Shown here: positions 1 to 32,248 of the stretch, piece after piece
Layout: each line of letters starts with the position of its first letter
Position numbering within the stretch: position 1 is the first letter of the stretch
Origin: Desulfobacterales bacterium
Lineage (GTDB): Bacteria > Desulfobacterota > Desulfobacteria > Desulfobacterales > UBA5852
Assembly: GCA_963674755.2 (NCBI GenBank)
Contig: CAXXVS010000003.1
Span: forward strand, 1,376,001 to 1,440,000
Direction of reading: 5' to 3'
Length of the DNA stretch: 64,000 nt
Notes under the pieces: generated by a model
Databases searched by the model: none
Told to the model about the DNA's origin: nothing
The model's input: only the letters and a program-made list of their open reading frames with translations
Position numbers and translations under genes: made by a program

Positions 1-425
1 TCCATCATCGGTGCCGTATAGCCTGTGCAAGAGCCGATTTTGATGTTCCGGGCCTGCATGGCCTCCACAAAGGGCAGCAGCCCCGGGATGGGGTCGGCGT
101 GGCTGACAATCGATGCCACCATCATGGGTTCGGTTTTTCCGTAGAGCCTGGCCACGTCGTCTTCGTCCGGCAATCGGCCGTATCGTTCCTGCCATTGTTG
201 GCCAACCCCGGGCAGCTGGCACATGCTGCGGATATGGTCTTTTTTGGCGATCCCCATGAACTGCCGGGCTTCGGCCGAAGTGACCGTGATGTCGAAGGCC
301 GCGAACACGCGCACGAAGACGTCGGCCGGTCCCATGCAGCCATAGTCGACTGCCGTCCCGGCCCAGTCCAGAACGACGGCCTTCAGCGGCCCGGTATAAG
401 GATATTGCGGAATGAAGGCGGACAT
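1..425 (-). CDS. phnX: Phosphonoacetaldehyde hydrolase (phosphonatase), runs off the window edge
   Basis: Manual translation from ATG at 425 gives MSAFIPQYPYTGPLKAVVLDWAGTAVDYGCMGP; DWAGT is the phosphonatase HAD motif I. Not in the ORF track because it lacks a stop in the window. Confidence 0.88.
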   Translation of the reverse strand, partial: MSAFIPQYPYTGPLKAVVLDWAGTAVDYGCMGPADVFVRVFAAFDITVTSAEARQFMGIAKKDHIRSMCQLPGVGQQWQERYGRLPDEDDVARLYGKTEPMMVASIVSHADPIPGLLPFVEAMQARNIKIGSCTGYTAPMM

Positions 426-22440: not shown

Positions 22441-23652
22441 TCATTCCGGCACGATACCAGGCAGGGCCCGGCGCATCTGCCGCAGGGCCTGGCGAATGCG
22501 GTGCTCGTTTTCCACCAGGGCCAGGCGCAGGTAGCCTTCCCCCTCCTCGCCGAAGCCGATGCCCGGTGCGACCGCCACGTTGCCTTCTTCCATCAAGCGC
22601 AGAGCGAATTCCATGGAGCCCATGGCATCGTAAGGCGCCGGCAGTTTGGCCCACACGAACATGCCGGCCCGGGGGCGGGTGATCTCCCATCCCATTTTCT
22701 GCAACCCTTCACAGAGGATGTCCCGCCGCAGTTGGTACTTCTCTACCTGTTCCTCGATTTCAGCATCGCAGTGGCGCAGGGCCATGATCCCCGCCACCTG
22801 AATGGCGGAAAAAATGCCGTAATCATAGTACCCTTTGATCTTGGCCAGTCCTGCAATAATCTGTCGATTGCCGACGCAATACCCCAGACGCCAGCCGGCC
22901 ATGTTGTAGGTCTTGGAGAAGCTGCCGAACTCGACACCCACCTCCCGGGCTCCGGGAACTTCCAGGAAGCTGGGCGGCTGATAGCCGTCGAAGGCGATCT
23001 TGGCATAGGCGAAATCATGGATGACCATGAAGTCGTAGCGTTGGGCCAGGCGCACGATCTCCCGGAAGAGATCCCGGCTGCCGAGCATGGCGGTGGGGTT
23101 GTGGGGGTAGTTGAGGATCAGCAGTTTGGGCCGCGGGGAGACATTGCGGCACATGTCGGCGATGCGGCGCACGAAGACCTCGTCTTCATCCAGCATGATG
23201 CGGATCACGCTGCCCCCGGCAATGATGGCGGCGTAGATGTGCACCGGAAAGGCCGGGGCCGGGACCAGGACGGTGTCCCCCGGTCCCACCAGGGCCAGGC
23301 AGAGGTGGGAGATGCCCTCCTTGGAGCCGATGGTGCAGATGACTTCGGCATCGCTGTCCAATTCGACGCCGTAATCGGCCTGGTAGCGCAGGGCGATTTC
23401 CCGGCGCAGGCTGCGCAGGCCGTCGGCGGCCGGGTAGCGGTGGGTCTTGGGATCCCGGGCCACCTCGCTCAGTTTTTCGCTCACTGTGGTGGGGGCCGGA
23501 TCGATGGGGTTGCCCATGCCGAGATCGATGACGTCGTCCCCCCGCCGGCGTTTTTCCATTTTCGATTTGTTGATCATGCCGAAGAGGTAGGGCGGGAGCT
23601 GGCTCATGCGTTGGGCGAAACGGATGGTGGGCGGGTGATCGTTCATGGCCAT
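22441..23652 (-). CDS. alaC: Class I/II PLP aminotransferase, AlaC (glutamate-pyruvate) type
   Basis: LPPYLF, KRRRGDDVIDLGMGNP, TIGSKEG, NYPHNPT, HDFAY, SFSKTYNMAGWR, ALVENEHRIRQA closely follow E. coli AlaC/YfdZ; the upstream Ala-rich leader supports this. Confidence 0.8.
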   Translation of the reverse strand: MAMNDHPPTIRFAQRMSQLPPYLFGMINKSKMEKRRRGDDVIDLGMGNPIDPAPTTVSEKLSEVARDPKTHRYPAADGLRSLRREIALRYQADYGVELDSDAEVICTIGSKEGISHLCLALVGPGDTVLVPAPAFPVHIYAAIIAGGSVIRIMLDEDEVFVRRIADMCRNVSPRPKLLILNYPHNPTAMLGSRDLFREIVRLAQRYDFMVIHDFAYAKIAFDGYQPPSFLEVPGAREVGVEFGSFSKTYNMAGWRLGYCVGNRQIIAGLAKIKGYYDYGIFSAIQVAGIMALRHCDAEIEEQVEKYQLRRDILCEGLQKMGWEITRPRAGMFVWAKLPAPYDAMGSMEFALRLMEEGNVAVAPGIGFGEEGEGYLRLALVENEHRIRQALRQMRRALPGIVPE

Positions 23653-23694: not shown

Positions 23695-23766
23695 AAAAAA
23701 CCCCGGGCCGTTCATGCTCGGCCCGGGGTTTAAAAAAAGCCATGGGCCGATTGGCCAGCCCATGGC
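23695..23766 (-). terminator. Two tandem intrinsic terminators in the alaC leader (attenuator)
   Basis: Minus strand GCCATGGGCTGG-CCAA-TCGGCCCATGGC-T7, then CCCCGGGCCG-loop-CGGCCCGGGG-T6. Confidence 0.85.
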
Positions 23767-23790
23767 GACGGTTACAGCATCTATGCTTGT

Positions 23791-23868
23791 TTAGCTGCTG
23801 TCGACCGCATCAAGGGCTGGCACCCCGGCTGCGGCCGCTGCAGCTGATGTCAACATCAGCGTTGTCAT
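23791..23868 (-). CDS. Alanine-rich leader peptide MTTLMLTSAAAAAAGVPALDAVDSS (25 aa)
   Basis: AAAGGAAA RBS, ATG 23868, six consecutive Ala codons GCT GCA GCG GCC GCA GCC, TAA at 23793-23791. Confidence 0.8.
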   Translation of the reverse strand: MTTLMLTSAAAAAAGVPALDAVDSS

Positions 23869-23901
23869 TGGATGGATTTCCTTTTTGAACGAAACGCCGT
23901 C

Positions 23902-23930
23902 ACCTTAAGGAAATTCGTCCATCCTGTCAA
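23902..23930 (-). promoter_or_regulatory. Sigma-70 promoter of leader-alaC
   Basis: TTGACA-17 bp-TAAGGT on the minus strand. Confidence 0.7.
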
Positions 23931-24418
23931 ATGCAAACTTGTTGCCAGCCCTTCGGCAGGTCGCTTGCGGCCAGCCCTAACGTTTCAGCGAAGGCCTTCA
24001 GTTGGTAGGCCGTGCAATTGACGGCGCCGGGTGGTCGCCCGTGGGCCACGTCATCGGTTTCAACCGCCAGGAACCTCGCCAGGGCTTGGGCCGCCGCCTG
24101 ACGGTGGGGTGTGGTATCACGGCCTTCCCGTTCGCAGAAGCGGGTCAGGCGCTGCCAGTTCGCGATGGCTCGGGCCAACCCCCGATAGATGGAACGGTCG
24201 CGGAAGCGCGGGTTGAGATCCCGCAGGAGGATGCGCTGATAGCGCTGCTCCACGGCATCCTTCAGCGACGCGATGTCTTCCGGCGTCAGATCCAGACAGG
24301 GCCCGCCACGATCCTCCTGGAGATCGTAGAGCGCGGTATGCAGGGCGACTTCGGGCATTTCCCCCGAGTGGTGAATGGCGAAAACTTCCTCTTCGATCAA
24401 ACTGTGGTGATCCGTCAT
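23927..24418 (-). CDS. Hypothetical protein
   Basis: GGAGG RBS; 163 aa; host-like codon usage. Confidence 0.75.
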   Translation of the reverse strand: MTDHHSLIEEEVFAIHHSGEMPEVALHTALYDLQEDRGGPCLDLTPEDIASLKDAVEQRYQRILLRDLNPRFRDRSIYRGLARAIANWQRLTRFCEREGRDTTPHRQAAAQALARFLAVETDDVAHGRPPGAVNCTAYQLKAFAETLGLAASDLPKGWQQVCI

Positions 24419-26233: not shown

Positions 26234-26617
26234 TCAAGCCGCCTTTTTGTCTTCTCCCGATGCGGCCTTGCGGGGTTTGCGCCGGACTTCTCCCTGCAGA
26301 ATCAGCTCTTCGCGGACGATTGCCGGGCGTCGGTAGACCGTCTCCTGCCGGAGGCAGCTCTTGGGGCAGGCGGCCACACAGATGCCGCAGCCGATGCAGG
26401 CCATGGGGTCCAGAGTCCAGGTGGCAGCGGCCTTGTCCACCGAAATGCATTGGGACGGGCATTTACGGGCGCAGGCCCCGCAAAAGATGCAGTCTTCCAC
26501 CGCATTGGCCAGTTCGCCCCGGGCGCGTTCAAACGGCTCGCGCTGCTCGATGGGGTAGAGACGGGTGGCGCTTTTGCTGAACAAATTTTTCAGGATGTGG
26601 GGCGTCATGAACATCAT
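26234..26617 (-). CDS. echF: Ech hydrogenase subunit F (2x[4Fe-4S])
   Basis: CIFCGACARKCP and CIGCGICVAACP; operon position. Confidence 0.9.
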   Translation of the reverse strand: MMFMTPHILKNLFSKSATRLYPIEQREPFERARGELANAVEDCIFCGACARKCPSQCISVDKAAATWTLDPMACIGCGICVAACPKSCLRQETVYRRPAIVREELILQGEVRRKPRKAASGEDKKAA

Positions 26618-26629
26618 GGTGGCGTTCTC

Positions 26630-27706
26630 CTATCGTTCGGTGCAGCTGATGCAGGGGTCAATGGACAGGACGATCACCGGCACGTCCGCCAGCTGGCAGC
26701 CGGGCAGCATGGCCAGCAGGGGGGCGATATTGGCGAAGGTGGGCGTGCGGATGCGCAGGCGCTCCAGGTGTTTGGACCCGTCGCACTTCATGTAGTAGAG
26801 CAGTTCCCCCCGGGGCTGCTCCACACGGCTGACCATCTCCCCTTCGGGGAAGCCCTTGACCTTGACGTTGATTTCGCCGGCCGGCAGCTTGTCGATGGCC
26901 TGGCGCACCAGGTCGATAGACTGCAGGGTTTCCCGGAAGCGCACTGCCCCTCGGGCGTAGGCATCCCCGTCGGTTTCCACCACCGGTTCGAAATCCAGCT
27001 CGTCGAAGGCAGCGTAGCGCAGCTGGCGCATGTCCTGGGCCCAGCCGCTGGCCCGCAGGGTGGGACCGGCCGCGCCCAATTCATAGGCTTGAGCCTTGTC
27101 GAGCACCCCCTTGCCCACCGTGCGCTTCTTGACGGTGTAGTCATTGAGCATGGTGGTCTGGATGGCCTTCAATTCTTTTTCCACGAGGTCCAGCTCCTTC
27201 AGGATCCACTGCTGTTGTTCGACGGGAATGTCGTAGCGCACGCCGCCGATGACGTTTACCGAAACGATCACCCGGTTGCCGCTGGTAGCCTCGTTGATGT
27301 CCATGATGCGTTCGCGGATTTTCCACAGCTGCATGAACAGGCTCTCGAAGCCGAAGGCATCGGCATAGAGTCCCAGCCAGAGGAGGTGGCTGTGCATGCG
27401 GTGCAGCTCGGACCAGACGACTCGCAGGAGACGGGCCCGGGGAGGCGCTGTCACGTCCATTTGTTTCTCGATGGCCTGGCAATAGCACATGGCGTGAATC
27501 ATGGAGCAGATGCCGCAGACCCGTTCCACCACCTGGATCATCTGGTGGATGTCGCGGATTTCGCAAAGTTTTTCCAGGCCGCGATGTACGAATCCGATCT
27601 GGGGGATGGCTTCGGTAACGATTTCGTCTTCCATCACCAGTTTCAAGTGCAGCGGTTCCGGTAGAACGGGATGCTGAGGGCCGAAAGGGATCGTCATTTT
27701 GGACAT
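26630..27706 (-). CDS. echE: Ech [NiFe]-hydrogenase large subunit (group 4e)
   Basis: GPQHP, L1 RVCGIC, L2 DPCISCTER with no C-terminal extension. Confidence 0.95.
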   Translation of the reverse strand: MSKMTIPFGPQHPVLPEPLHLKLVMEDEIVTEAIPQIGFVHRGLEKLCEIRDIHQMIQVVERVCGICSMIHAMCYCQAIEKQMDVTAPPRARLLRVVWSELHRMHSHLLWLGLYADAFGFESLFMQLWKIRERIMDINEATSGNRVIVSVNVIGGVRYDIPVEQQQWILKELDLVEKELKAIQTTMLNDYTVKKRTVGKGVLDKAQAYELGAAGPTLRASGWAQDMRQLRYAAFDELDFEPVVETDGDAYARGAVRFRETLQSIDLVRQAIDKLPAGEINVKVKGFPEGEMVSRVEQPRGELLYYMKCDGSKHLERLRIRTPTFANIAPLLAMLPGCQLADVPVIVLSIDPCISCTER

Positions 27707-27991
27707 GCGTCTACCTCGTCTGGGGGGTGAAGGCGGCCGGCGTGTCCTGGCGAAGACGACGCCGGCCGCGTTCGGGTATAACGGACGGCCGTGGGGCCGC
27801 TGTTGTGTGGAACATTTCGCATGGACGGGCTTGCGCCGCGGTGTTTTGGGAACAAAGGAGGCGGTCCCGCCGGCCGTCCGTTAATCGGTGTTGACTTCAT
27901 GCTGAATCGCTCGTTGTCGCCTTTGCAAAAGCGTTCACCACGAAGGGCACGAAGAGAGAAAAGAATCTTTGTACGGTTTCGTGGCATTTTT

Positions 27992-28384
27992 CTATCGGCC
28001 CTGCTTGGCCGATGAGGACCGGGTAGCTTTGACGACGCCATATTTGCAAAAGGGCGTCCGCCCGACCTCCTCTTCCAGGTAGAGGCCGGCCTCGTAGTCC
28101 AGGGCCAGGCCATCGAAGCGCAGGCCGAACTGATCCTGGATCTCGTTTTCCACCAGAACAGCAGCGAAATAGGCCCCGGAAATGCTGGGAACCGGGCGAT
28201 TCTTGCTGACATTCACCCGGAAGTGCTGCAAGGTGATCTCCCGGTCGAAGTGATAGATCAGGTCCACCTCGTGCGCGTTGAGATCCACTGCCGTCAGGGT
28301 CACCAGGCGGTAGCCGGCCTGTTTCATCCGTTTGGCGGCAGGGATGATTTCGTCGGTGGTGATGGAAGACATGTTGTCGATCAT
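27992..28384 (-). CDS. echD: Ech hydrogenase subunit D (NuoC-like)
   Basis: LIYHF, VPSIS, ENEIQDQFG. Confidence 0.88.
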   Translation of the reverse strand: MIDNMSSITTDEIIPAAKRMKQAGYRLVTLTAVDLNAHEVDLIYHFDREITLQHFRVNVSKNRPVPSISGAYFAAVLVENEIQDQFGLRFDGLALDYEAGLYLEEEVGRTPFCKYGVVKATRSSSAKQGR

Positions 28385-28567
28385 GTTCGGTTTTTCCTTT
28401 TTAGGATTCTTCGCGCGTTGTTTCGGGGCGCCGTGGGATTCAGGGCATAAAGACCGGAATAGCGGAGTGCTTCATCCAAATTACTTGGGTGGAAAGGCTT
28501 TACAACCCACCTTCCTGTCTGTCTTTCACCCGATCCCCTGGGGCCTTGAACCCTCGGCCCCCTGAAG

Positions 28568-29011
28568 TCACGCCGCCTCCCGGGCCTTGCTCTTGAAGAC
28601 TTCGATGGCCTGCACCACGCCGTCGATGATGGCCTCCGGTTTGGGGGGGCAGCCGTAGACATAGACGTCCACCGGGATCACCTTGTCGATGCCCCCCACC
28701 ACATTGTAGGCCTCCCGGAAGATGCCGCCGGACAACCCGCAGGCCCCGATGGCGATGACGGCCTTGGGGTCCGGAATCTGGTCGTAGATCTTCTTCAGGA
28801 CATGCTTGTTGCGGTGGTTCACCGTGCCGGTCACCATGAGGATGTCGGCGTGCTTGGGGTTGCCCACGTTGACCACCCCGAAGCGCTCCACGTCGTAGAC
28901 GGGTGTCAGGCAGGCCAGCGTCTCGATGTCGCACCCGTTGCAGCTGCCGCAGTCGAAGTGCACGATCCAGGGTGACTTGGCGCGCGCTTTTTCGATAAAG
29001 TCTTTAATCAT
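28568..29011 (-). CDS. echC: Ech hydrogenase small subunit C
   Basis: SPW..CGSCNGCDIE, GACG, GCPPKPE; GGAGG RBS. Confidence 0.93.
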   Translation of the reverse strand: MIKDFIEKARAKSPWIVHFDCGSCNGCDIETLACLTPVYDVERFGVVNVGNPKHADILMVTGTVNHRNKHVLKKIYDQIPDPKAVIAIGACGLSGGIFREAYNVVGGIDKVIPVDVYVYGCPPKPEAIIDGVVQAIEVFKSKAREAA

Positions 29012-29078
29012 GATATATCTTTTATCCTCCCGGACGCTAAAATTTCCGTATCGTATTGCCAATCTTGCGACGTTTTGT

Positions 29079-29293
29079 TTGTTCATTTTCTTCCACGTGG
29101 AAGAAAACGAACCAATCACGCCACGGCGTGACAGGCTTCAGACGCCCGTGTCCCGCTTCATCCTGCGCGTCGTCGCGTCGGCCGGAGCACGCGGAAACAC
29201 GCTCCGCCTTCGCTCTGGCTACGGCAGAGCTCAGACAGTCCGCGCGCTTTATTCCGTCCGCCCAGCCGATGCTCGGCGCGGGACAAATGGGAT
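29079..29293. repeat. Dispersed REP/MITE-like repeat, copy B
   Basis: Homologous to 25904-26075, with two small hairpin insertions. Confidence 0.8.
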
Positions 29294-29351
29294 CAAATCA
29301 AAAATCGTGAACAGCATTTTTTAACCAGGACAAAACCATATCCAATCTTAT

Positions 29352-29496
29352 AGGGTCGATGCAGAAAAGAGGATTTTTGATCCTGATCAAGGCCGCACAA
29401 GGGTTTTGCTGTGAGGCGTACATCGGTACGCCGCAGCAGGAAAACCCGCTGCGACCGGCCGAGCAGGCTCATAAAGACCTTTTCTGGTCGGCTCCT
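29352..29496. repeat. Long imperfect hairpin element (REP-like)
   Basis: Nested inverted repeats CAGAAAAG/CTTTTCTG, GGGTTTT/AAAACCC, GGCGTAC/GTACGCC. Confidence 0.55.
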
Positions 29497-30347
29497 CATT
29501 TGGTGTAGAGCCATATGATATTGATGATTGACATGGCCAATCCCACGCTCCACACGTAGCCCAGCATCCAGCGCCAGGTCATGCGCGCCATGGCATTGTC
29601 CACGATCAACTCCGCAAAATAGGTTATGCCGACGAGCAGCAGCATGCCCGCCGCGCTGGTGGCCCAAAACAGGGCGCACAGTCCCAAAATCAAAACGGTT
29701 TCGTACCAGTGGCCGATTTCGATCAGGCCAAGAATGGGGCCGGAATGTTCGGTCAAAACGCCCTTGACGATTTCCTGGTGCCCGTGGTGCGAAGTCGAAA
29801 AGTCGAAGGGTGACTTGCGCAGCTTGATGGTGAGCGCATAGGTCAGGACCAAGAAGATCAGTGGCAGCTCCTTGAGCAACGGCGTAGCATGGCCGTAGAC
29901 GGCGGAGATCTTGAAGCTGCCGGTCACCGAGTAGATGGTGACGAACACCAGAATAAGAAGGGGTTCGTAGGTCAGCACCTGGATCAGCTCCCGCTGAGCG
30001 CCCACCTGGGCGTAGGGCGAGGGCACGGCCATGCCCCCCAGCACCAGGAAGACCGCACCCACGGCCTGCACGAAAAAGATCAGCAGGAGGTCCGATTGCA
30101 GAAAGAAGAGCACCACCGAGAGCACCGCCCCCACCAGGTAGACATAGGCGCAGAAGACCTGCCAGGCATTGGGCACGATCATCTGTTTGCCGAAGAGTTT
30201 GGCCACGTCGTAAAAGGGCTGCAGGATAGGCGGGCCGAAGCGGGCCTGCAGGCGGGCCGTGATGCGGCGGTCGATGCCGGCGATAAGCCCGCCCAACAGC
30301 GGCGCGCCCCCCAGGGCGAACAGAATCAGCAGGGTATCCTTGATCAC
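29496..30347 (-). CDS. echB: Ech hydrogenase membrane subunit B (NuoH-like)
   Basis: GIDRRITARLQARFGPPILQPFYD, KSPFD; GTG start overlaps the echA stop. Confidence 0.93.
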   Translation of the reverse strand: MIKDTLLILFALGGAPLLGGLIAGIDRRITARLQARFGPPILQPFYDVAKLFGKQMIVPNAWQVFCAYVYLVGAVLSVVLFFLQSDLLLIFFVQAVGAVFLVLGGMAVPSPYAQVGAQRELIQVLTYEPLLILVFVTIYSVTGSFKISAVYGHATPLLKELPLIFLVLTYALTIKLRKSPFDFSTSHHGHQEIVKGVLTEHSGPILGLIEIGHWYETVLILGLCALFWATSAAGMLLLVGITYFAELIVDNAMARMTWRWMLGYVWSVGLAMSIINIIWLYTK

Positions 30348-32248
30348 AGGGCACCTCCCATCATCAGTACCAGCAACGCCACGGCCACGTTGTTGACCCA
30401 GAAGGTCAGGCGCTCTTCCCCGAAGAGCCGGGTCAGATAGTAGTTGCCGGTTTCGATCCGGACGATCCGGTTCATGGGGCCGCGGAAGGTTTCGTCGTCC
30501 GGTCCGCCGCTGTGGAGCCCGGACATGTACATGGGGGCCACGTGACGGGCGCGGGTCTTCTGGGCCTGCTTCAGGGCGGCCACGAAGCCCAGGGCCAGGA
30601 TGATGAAGATGGGGATGACGGTAAACCCGCCGATGGGGCTGTCGAGGCTTCCGAAGCTCACCTGATACGGCGCAAAAGCCAGCATAGGGCGCACCAGCAG
30701 GCTGTAAATCCAGGGCAGGACCAGGCTGAAGAGGACCGCGCCGCCGGCCAGCACGTTCAAGGGCCCGATGGTGAAGGCGGACATGGGCTCCGGCGTGAGC
30801 CCCTTTTTGTAGGAGGCACTCATCAGGATACCCGCCCAGCGGCCCCAGACCACGAACCCCAGGGCACTGCCCATGGCGATCATCCCCACCGCGGGCAGGT
30901 TGTTGGAGGCGGCCTCGATAGCCATCCATTTGCTGATCAGCACGCCGAAGGGCGGCAGCAGCATGGTCATGATGCCGATCACGGTGATGACCGCGATGCG
31001 GGGCTTGATGGCGAACAGCCCCCGCATATCCTCGATGTCGCGGCTGCCGATCTCCTGTTCGATGGTGCCGACGCACAGAAACAGCAGGGCCTTGGAGACG
31101 GCGTGGAAGATGATCAGCAGGATGCCGGCCGTGAGCGCGGTGGGCGTGTTGATGCCGGCGCAGGCGATGATCAGGCCCAGGTTGGAAATGGTGGAATAGG
31201 CCAGGATCTTCTTGGCGTTGCGCTGGCCCAGGGCCAGGGCGATGGTTACCAGGAAGGTGAAGGCCCCCACGATGGCCAGCCCCTGGCTGAAAAAGGTACC
31301 GGCAAAGACAGGTGCAAAGCGGAAGATGACGTAGACGCCGGCCTTGACCATGGTACTCGAGTGCAGCAGGGCGCTGACCGGGGTGGGCGCCACCATGGCG
31401 CCCAACAGCCAGCTCTGGAAGGGCACCTGGGCCGACTTGGTGAACCCGGCCAGGCAGAACAGGGCCATGGGCACCAGCAGGGCGGCGGCCGGGCCGGCGG
31501 CCACGATCTGCTGGATGTCGGTGGTGCCGGTGATCTGGTGGACGCCGATCATGCCGGCGACAAAGGCCACGCCGCCCAGGGCGTTCATCCACAGGGCCCG
31601 CAGCGCGTTTTGGACGGCCAATTCGGTGCCGTCATGGCCGATCAGCAGGAAGGAGCACAGGGTGGTGACCTCGAAAAAGAAGTAGAGCCAGACGATGTCA
31701 TTGGAAAGTGCCAGCCCGTTCATGGCGCCCAGGAAAGCCAGCAGCAGGAAGAAAAAGCGTGGCTGTCGGGAGTGAGCCGGCTTCTGGTGATCTTCGTGGC
31801 GCTGCATGTAGGGCAGGGCGAACACACAGATCAGCGATCCCACGATGGAGACTATCAGGGTGATGATAAGCGAAAGGTTGTCGCCGTAGAAGCCGGCCGC
31901 CGGAGCTTTGTGATCGATCAGAAAGAGTTCGAAGAACATCAGGGGCAGGGCCTGCAGGGCCACCAGGACCATGATGAGTTTATGGCGGTGCCGGCGAGCG
32001 ATCTGGAACATGATGCCCAGCAAGGCAAAGTCGGCCAGGGAGACGGCCGCATTGATCAGGCCGCCCCAGGGGGCGGGCGGGGTATAGTGGAAGGTGCCGT
32101 GGCCCAGCAGCATCAGGGCCCCTGCGGTCAGTACGGCGCCCGTGACCAGCACGGTAAACGTGCGCACAAAGGCCATCCGCACGCTGAAACAGACCACCCC
32201 GGCGATCAGGGGGACTCCGATGCACATGAAGAGCAGCAAGGAGGGCAT
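30344..32248 (-). CDS. echA: Ech hydrogenase antiporter-like subunit A (NuoL-like)
   Basis: FFEVTTLCS, TKSAQVPF, AMVAPTPVSALLHSSTMVKAG, LAYSTISNLG. Confidence 0.95.
   Translation of the reverse strand: MPSLLLFMCIGVPLIAGVVCFSVRMAFVRTFTVLVTGAVLTAGALMLLGHGTFHYTPPAPWGGLINAAVSLADFALLGIMFQIARRHRHKLIMVLVALQALPLMFFELFLIDHKAPAAGFYGDNLSLIITLIVSIVGSLICVFALPYMQRHEDHQKPAHSRQPRFFFLLLAFLGAMNGLALSNDIVWLYFFFEVTTLCSFLLIGHDGTELAVQNALRALWMNALGGVAFVAGMIGVHQITGTTDIQQIVAAGPAAALLVPMALFCLAGFTKSAQVPFQSWLLGAMVAPTPVSALLHSSTMVKAGVYVIFRFAPVFAGTFFSQGLAIVGAFTFLVTIALALGQRNAKKILAYSTISNLGLIIACAGINTPTALTAGILLIIFHAVSKALLFLCVGTIEQEIGSRDIEDMRGLFAIKPRIAVITVIGIMTMLLPPFGVLISKWMAIEAASNNLPAVGMIAMGSALGFVVWGRWAGILMSASYKKGLTPEPMSAFTIGPLNVLAGGAVLFSLVLPWIYSLLVRPMLAFAPYQVSFGSLDSPIGGFTVIPIFIILALGFVAALKQAQKTRARHVAPMYMSGLHSGGPDDETFRGPMNRIVRIETGNYYLTRLFGEERLTFWVNNVAVALLVLMMGGAL

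Follow-up and report, generated by a model that had tools for sequence, protein, structure and literature searches.

A poly-alanine leader upstream of an aminotransferase gene

The window, by which we mean the whole 64,000-nucleotide stretch of DNA that was analysed, carries on its minus strand the gene of a class I PLP aminotransferase of 401 amino acids, P0001 (22441..23646, ATG at 23646), which belongs to an AlaC-paralogue subfamily. Upstream of it, on the same strand, we observe a putative sigma70 promoter with a -35 box TTGACA (23925..23930) and, after a 17-nt spacer, a -10 box TAAGGT (23902..23907). A consensus scanner listed 0 promoters here because TAAGGT matches the -10 consensus at 3/6 positions only; of the 48 leaders compared below, 46 have TTGAC no more than 150 nt before the Ala run and 28 show the complete pattern TTGACN-16..18-TAnnnT. 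A Shine-Dalgarno (SD)-like AAGGA (23879..23883) then precedes a leader ORF of 25 amino acids, MTTLMLTSAAAAAAGVPALDAVDSS (23791..23868), whose codons 9-14 are six consecutive Ala codons in the order GCT GCA GCG GCC GCA GCC, all four synonyms being used.

Six pairing segments lie over this leader. Segment A coincides with the Ala control codons (23827..23844) and can pair with B (23796..23821), which occupies the 3' half of the ORF and forms the 5' arm of an antiterminator, B:C. Segment C (23754..23779) pairs either with B in the read-through state or, through its core 23766-23755, with D in terminator 1. Segment D (23750-23739), which with its U7 tract covers 23732..23750, is the 3' arm of terminator 1 or the 5' arm of a D:E helix; E (23718..23731) is the partner of D (read-through) or F (terminator 2), and F with its U tract (23695..23710) gives the 3' arm of terminator 2. 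The two terminator-like hairpins thus span 23766-23739 and 23731-23698. The promoter, SD, ORF, six Ala codons and two U-tailed hairpins had all been pointed out in an earlier note made from the sequence, and each is found where that note placed it.

The leader folds with a z score of -7.5 relative to shuffles. Short ATG ORFs with at least five consecutive Ala codons number 13 in the entire 6.7-Mb genome, with an SD-like word in 5, and this leader is the only one of the 13 with both an SD-like word and a U-run after it. The upstream neighbour, given here as context, is a DUF7826 gene of 163 amino acids (23927..24418, minus strand; PF25159, 166 bits), which also adjoins seven same-genus loci. 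The -35 box contains the TGA stop of this gene, and terminator prediction found no terminator between the gene and the leader, so transcripts from upstream would also cross the attenuator. Elsewhere in the window, a minus-strand cluster at 26234-31592 was recognised by eye as resembling a membrane-bound energy-converting (Ech-type) hydrogenase.

The aminotransferase is a diverged AlaC paralogue

The best NCBIfam model for P0001 is alanine transaminase PRK08175, at 504.8 against a cut-off of 647 and therefore below it. P0001 and E. coli AlaC (b2379) share 49% identity over 392 amino acids, and the best solved-structure match of P0001 is Pseudomonas 2x5d (E value, 9e-126). A quick, unrooted maximum-likelihood tree built from 100 rows places E. 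coli AlaC among leaderless housekeeping copies (SH-aLRT 95). P0001 sits apart from these, in a group of 80 rows on a long branch of its own (support 91); judged by its sequence, P0001 is thus an AlaC paralogue and not an orthologue of E. coli AlaC. The AlaC-type label of the earlier note therefore stands in that the enzyme is AlaC-like, and has to be narrowed in that it is a diverged paralogue under the PRK08175 cut-off.

In the genome of P0001, a second AlaC-like gene, which scores 637 of the 647 cut-off, lies just upstream of an ORF recognised by eye as homoserine-dehydrogenase-like, and there are two alanine dehydrogenase (ald) genes; none of the three has a leader upstream. A close match to AlaA was not found in the genome. 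The second AlaC-like enzyme and the two alanine dehydrogenases are, by sequence, other possible routes to alanine.

By homology, P0001 probably forms alanine, most likely from pyruvate. The strongest rival, which we regard as unlikely though deserving of weight, is that the attenuator does sense alanine while the enzyme uses another donor/acceptor pair or is DapL-like. The PRK08175 shortfall speaks for it, as do the models next in rank, all named LL-DAP aminotransferase (475, 455, and 452 bits), the long branch that sets the clade apart from E. coli AlaC, and, close to the substrate pocket, substitutions specific to the clade; at invariant sites, e.g., with Y133F and S72P, P0001 departs from E. 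coli AlaC as well as from the housekeeping copy. Against this, alanine transaminase is still the top model, and each of the LL-DAP aminotransferase models stays below its own cut-off. P0001 keeps the same PLP motifs as E. coli AlaC. In the DapL motif GPEQG, the position of the Glu, which we take as typical of DapL, holds Ala, Ser, or Thr across the clade (60, 18, and 2 of 80), like in E. coli AlaC. A separate, true DapL is encoded elsewhere in the genome (TIGR03542, 585.9 against 364.7), and an AlaA-like family also carries an Ala leader (see below). The earlier note had named a DapL identity among the outcomes that would undo its reading; the model scores, the separate DapL and the missing Glu make it unlikely that P0001 is a DapL.

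The leader is conserved in frame across orthologues

The P0001-type gene is present in 71/401 genomes of the order sample and in 10/401 of the phylum sample, where one is a 56% outlier without a leader. We inspected all 80 distinct loci of the orthologue set (64-100% identity) and observe a poly-Ala leader at 54, comprising 48/74 within the order and 6/6 beyond it. Another 24 of the 80 are leaderless, and two (L009 in G014 and L011 in G016) show a decayed leader in which the Ala ORF and U-tracts are gone and both hairpins remain; their sister locus L010 retains the full leader. Among paralogous alaC copies at 48-51% identity, 0/17 have a leader. As leaders are spread over the clade and absences are clustered, the distribution on the unrooted quick tree fits one ancestral leader with several losses.

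Five core codons encode Ala in 41, 48, 46, 47, and 44 of the 48 leaders, and beyond them no residue of the leader peptide exceeds 25/48. Variation at these codons is mostly synonymous, with an entropy of 1.08-1.68 bits at the third position against 0-0.8 at positions 1-2, and 198 of the 246 Ala codons are GCC or GCG. An in-frame ATG is found in 47/48 leaders (6/48 and 5/48 in the other two frames) and is preceded by an SD-like word in 43/48 (0/48 in either other frame), counts that are partly circular since the 48 were chosen by their Ala ORF, and many of the rows are close kin. The N-terminal part varies in length and is always in frame, and a stop follows 10-18 codons past the first core Ala codon in 48/48. 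Seven held-out loci (L130-L135 and L154) have a full-length model score together with an in-frame ORF. Both hairpins carry U-tracts in 31 of the 48 leaders, only the first in 9, only the second in 8, and neither in 0.

Several individual loci depart from this pattern. In one genus (L083-L089) the U-tract is on the first hairpin only and the second hairpin is short, and in L010, L031, L034, L035, L038, L041, L043, and L048 it is on the second and not the first. Thr or Ser interrupts the Ala control run in L041, L042, and L072, where sensing is possibly weakened or broadened. At L154 (G110:C188), an intact Ala leader is followed by an internally deleted aminotransferase gene of 144 amino acids, the deletion being either real or an artefact of assembly in which a short repeat collapsed. 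At L002 (G004), a 175-nt repeated element stands in place of the promoter upstream of the leader; this MITE- or REP-like element has 81 BLAST matches in the genome of P0001.

A pattern scan of genome contigs returned seven loci, all from close relatives. In metagenomes the scan returned at least 119 loci, and among the matches listed 12 have the leader scaffold, 10 before a P0001-family gene and two ended by the contig edge; the remaining 107 listed loci were judged to be chance matches. A model search of the genome of P0001 itself found no second copy of the poly-Ala leader. Its two weaker matches there were a Phe leader before a DAHP synthase gene and a plain terminator, and an ORF with four Ala codons at C2:1679527 was set aside, with no same-direction gene downstream within the stretch examined.

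Two mutually exclusive folds covary

The leader alignment yields six segments in which B:C, C:D, D:E, and E:F can form, each pair excluding its neighbours. The lettering follows the his attenuator, where A:B/C:D/E:F alternates with B:C/D:E. The complementarity between 23821-23804 and 23772-23754 that the earlier note had singled out is real and is part of a longer hairpin, 23821-23754 (-37.0 kcal/mol). That note left open how the second terminator is bypassed: it overlooked the D:E helix (23750-23718), which is the bypass. When B holds C, D is free for E, and both terminators are blocked in one cascade.

Both states are kept across the related leaders. In the read-through state (B:C and D:E), 83.4% of cells are paired and 90 cells show two-sided changes against 35.9 in shuffles (0/500); in the terminator state, 87.8% are paired, with 53 two-sided changes against 18.4. 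On these measures both states beat 500/500 shuffles, a test that is inflated by relatedness and by structures drawn from the same sequences. In slid controls, paired cells fall to 23-46% for the read-through state and 23-51% over both states. RNAalifold alone recovers only the two terminators, as expected because the folds are mutually exclusive, and finds no common A:B register across the leaders; in the window A:B folds with -33.8 kcal/mol. The mutual exclusion and the trp/his/thr-like geometry proposed in the earlier note are hence borne out, the latter specifically as his-type segments A-F. Its foremost check, whether the Ala run is conserved in orthologues, gives a conserved run, frame, spacing and antiterminator, with covariation.

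The computed switch lies at the end of the Ala run

We computed the folds with a ribosome placed along the ORF. In the window transcript ending just before F, both P(B:C) and P(D:E) reach 0.99-1.0 when codon 11, 12, or 13 occupies the A site, and P(C:D) is at least 0.98 when the A site is at codon 14 or beyond. For ribosome footprints of 9-15 nt, the fold switches where the Ala run stops, the boundary shifting by one codon at 9 or 15. Up to 38 of the 48 leaders have D:E above 0.5 while the ribosome is inside the Ala run, and 33-40 have C:D above 0.5 after it has passed. D:E exceeds 0.5 in 35/48 leaders against 80/480 with B shuffled. By the joint criterion, 30/48 leaders switch and 18/48 fail, where the constraint itself imposes the loss of B:C after ribosome passage.

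At the end of D, the equilibrium fold favours C:D at codons 11, 13, and 14. In full-length equilibrium folding, terminator 2 is kept whatever the ribosome position, so read-through must be kinetic.

The scaffold recurs with other control codons and targets

The leader model also matches leaders of Desulfobacterota that share the two-hairpin scaffold and differ in control codons and target genes. We inspected 19 of 37 non-self matches in the phylum, a few of which are plain terminators. Trp runs stand before trpB-like genes and trpD, Phe/Tyr runs before genes for DAHP synthase (one in the genome of P0001) and ADH synthase, and a Leu/Val run before leuA. Lopatovskaya, Seliverstov and Lyubetsky are said to have predicted trp, phe, leu, and thr attenuators in delta-proteobacteria in 2010.

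The own-genome case (L092, G000:C2:661350-661445) is a Phe-rich leader ORF on the same scaffold before the DAHP synthase gene, and several other genomes in the order keep leaders of this type (L156-L158 and L160-L165). The targets of the Trp, Phe/Tyr, and Leu/Val leaders (L094, L096-L098, L101-L103, L105-L110, L114, and L166) include ADH synthase, an aminotransferase of PRK06836 and, recognised by eye, a TRAP-like and an ABC-like binding protein, and the control codons hint at the substrates of these proteins.

One match of the leader model, L159, is a poly-Ala leader before a gene of an unrelated, AlaA-like aminotransferase family, PRK06855 (723.8 against a cut-off of 443). This protein is 23% identical to P0001, and its nearest structures are 1xi9 and E. 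coli AlaA 4cvq. A poly-Ala leader is present at 26 of the 60 PRK06855 loci inspected first. Within the order, where 30 loci of 60 matches were examined, it is found at 14/21 loci of at least 66% identity (two of the 21 being without upstream DNA) and at 0/9 loci of 52-55%. Beyond the order, an Ala run with a U-tailed hairpin occurs at 12 of the 30 loci inspected from 73 matches; several of these 12 have a single hairpin and one has just three consecutive Ala codons. Seven further PRK06855 loci showed no leader. The PRK06855 leader RNA differs in sequence and has the same design, B:C/D:E against C:D/E:F, with both states covarying and 92.9% and 93.6% of cells paired in the two states among 14 sequences.

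Many PRK06855 leaders have a Gln/Arg-Ala-X motif, mostly Arg-Ala-Thr/Ile, directly before the Ala run (L182-L187, L189, L190, L193, L328, L341-L343, L346, L349, L351, L353, L355, and L356), a motif that might retard the ribosome or reflect a constraint on the RNA. In 11 genomes where the DNA upstream of both genes was inspected, the leader is on the AlaC paralogue only in eight, on PRK06855 only in one, on neither in two, and on both in none; as seven of the eight come from one genus, this pattern of one sensor per genome is weak.

Comparison with known leaders

A search against Rfam, which holds His, Trp, Leu, Thr, and Phe leaders, T-boxes and riboswitches, gave no match at the gathering threshold, and the weak matches were generic terminators; the known-leader search suggested in the earlier note thus returned no family. 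The alanine T-box riboswitches of Firmicutes (alaS, alaRT) read uncharged tRNA-Ala and control alanine genes via antitermination. They differ from the present leader, which has no T-box match, in that RNA and tRNA pair directly without a ribosome. E. coli alaC is controlled by SgrR and is not known to use attenuation.

The nearest design is that of hisL of Salmonella and E. coli, which likewise has a short leader ORF, a run of codons for a single amino acid and an additional hairpin, placed after the first one and ahead of the terminator, that is proposed to lower basal read-through (PMC1183508). Here the codons are for alanine and not histidine, a single aminotransferase gene follows, and the extra (first) hairpin is U-tailed in 40/48 leaders. 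The closest in specificity is the "Ala leader" of mycobacterial whiB7, where antitermination by an upstream ORF (uORF) is tuned to alanine starvation and ends in induction of the alanine aminotransferase aspC (PMC10274678). The whiB7 uORF is longer, mixed and Ala-enriched, responds to many stresses and acts indirectly via a transcription factor, whereas the present leader places a compact Ala run directly before the enzyme gene, in another phylum and with another architecture. The suggestion of the earlier note that such an element may be undescribed accordingly survives for the direct arrangement and not for alanine-tuned uORF attenuation as such, which is published for whiB7 (PMC10274678).

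A literature search of main texts, mostly of openly accessible papers, found no published description of a poly-Ala leader directly on an aminotransferase gene. Alanine is not mentioned in the main text of PMC4833913, and its supplements could hold predicted leaders. The direct alanine case is very probably a new variant of classical attenuation.

The whiB7 parallel also raises the idea that the leader is a general sensor of translation stress or antibiotics, or an arrest peptide, and not an alanine gauge. The Ala-rich whiB7 uORF is reported to react to ribosome-directed drugs as well as to starvation of many kinds (PMC10274678), and by computation a stall at any of codons 8-13 in our leader would yield an equivalent fold. 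However, no non-Ala residue is conserved in or near the stall window, the computed switch comes just where the Ala run ends, and sister leaders carry cognate codon runs, which together make such a sensor very improbable.

A model for alanine-controlled attenuation

We observe the anatomy of the leader, its conservation and frame and the covariation of both states directly, and the switch is computed. From the classical attenuation model we infer translation of the ORF, stalling, termination and the specificity of the enzyme. The element is, with high likelihood, a ribosome-mediated, his-type transcription attenuator tuned to charged tRNA-Ala. RNA polymerase would start at the sigma70-like promoter and a ribosome would load on the leader ORF. 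With alanine plentiful, the ribosome would clear the Ala run and cover B, C:D (terminator 1) and E:F (terminator 2) would form, and transcription would stop ahead of the gene. With Ala-tRNA scarce, it would stall on the GCN codons, covering A and leaving B open; B:C and then D:E would form in place of both terminators, and the aminotransferase gene would be transcribed. Alanine made from pyruvate by P0001 would close the feedback loop.

Control of enzyme translation by SD masking, in place of transcription, is a still slimmer prospect than a general stress sensor: some leaders do have a weak U-tract on one hairpin, yet not one of the 48 lacks both, and in the window the SD of the P0001 gene lies ~35 nt 3' of segment F, clear of the helices. 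That a GC-rich helix in an untranslated riboswitch or protein-bound RNA gives rise to the Ala run as a side effect, as the prevalence of GCC and GCG and the stable A:B pairing in the window might suggest, is hardly credible given the synonymous third positions, the SD and ATG in the Ala frame only, the variable N terminus that is always in frame, the stop 10-18 codons on in every leader and the lack of an Rfam family at gathering score.

Implications

For the wider family, we lean towards a picture in which Desulfobacterota share a his-type scaffold with interchangeable codon cassettes, whose Ala version sits on the AlaC paralogue and on PRK06855 with at most one sensor per genome; both families would then be regulated alanine-forming enzymes, and alanine would be a widespread attenuation class. 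If the alanine-tuned attenuator is real, alanine joins the amino acids that classical attenuation senses directly. The comparative support is unusually full, with two covarying folds and a double terminator that a single cascade would disarm. As a functional label, the leader would mark two uncharacterised aminotransferase families, whose members are easily mistaken for DapL in annotation, as alanine-forming. Being compact and portable, the element lends itself to tests in E. coli and might be turned into an alanine biosensor. Within the organisms that carry it, the leader would show how these anaerobes may regulate their alanine supply.
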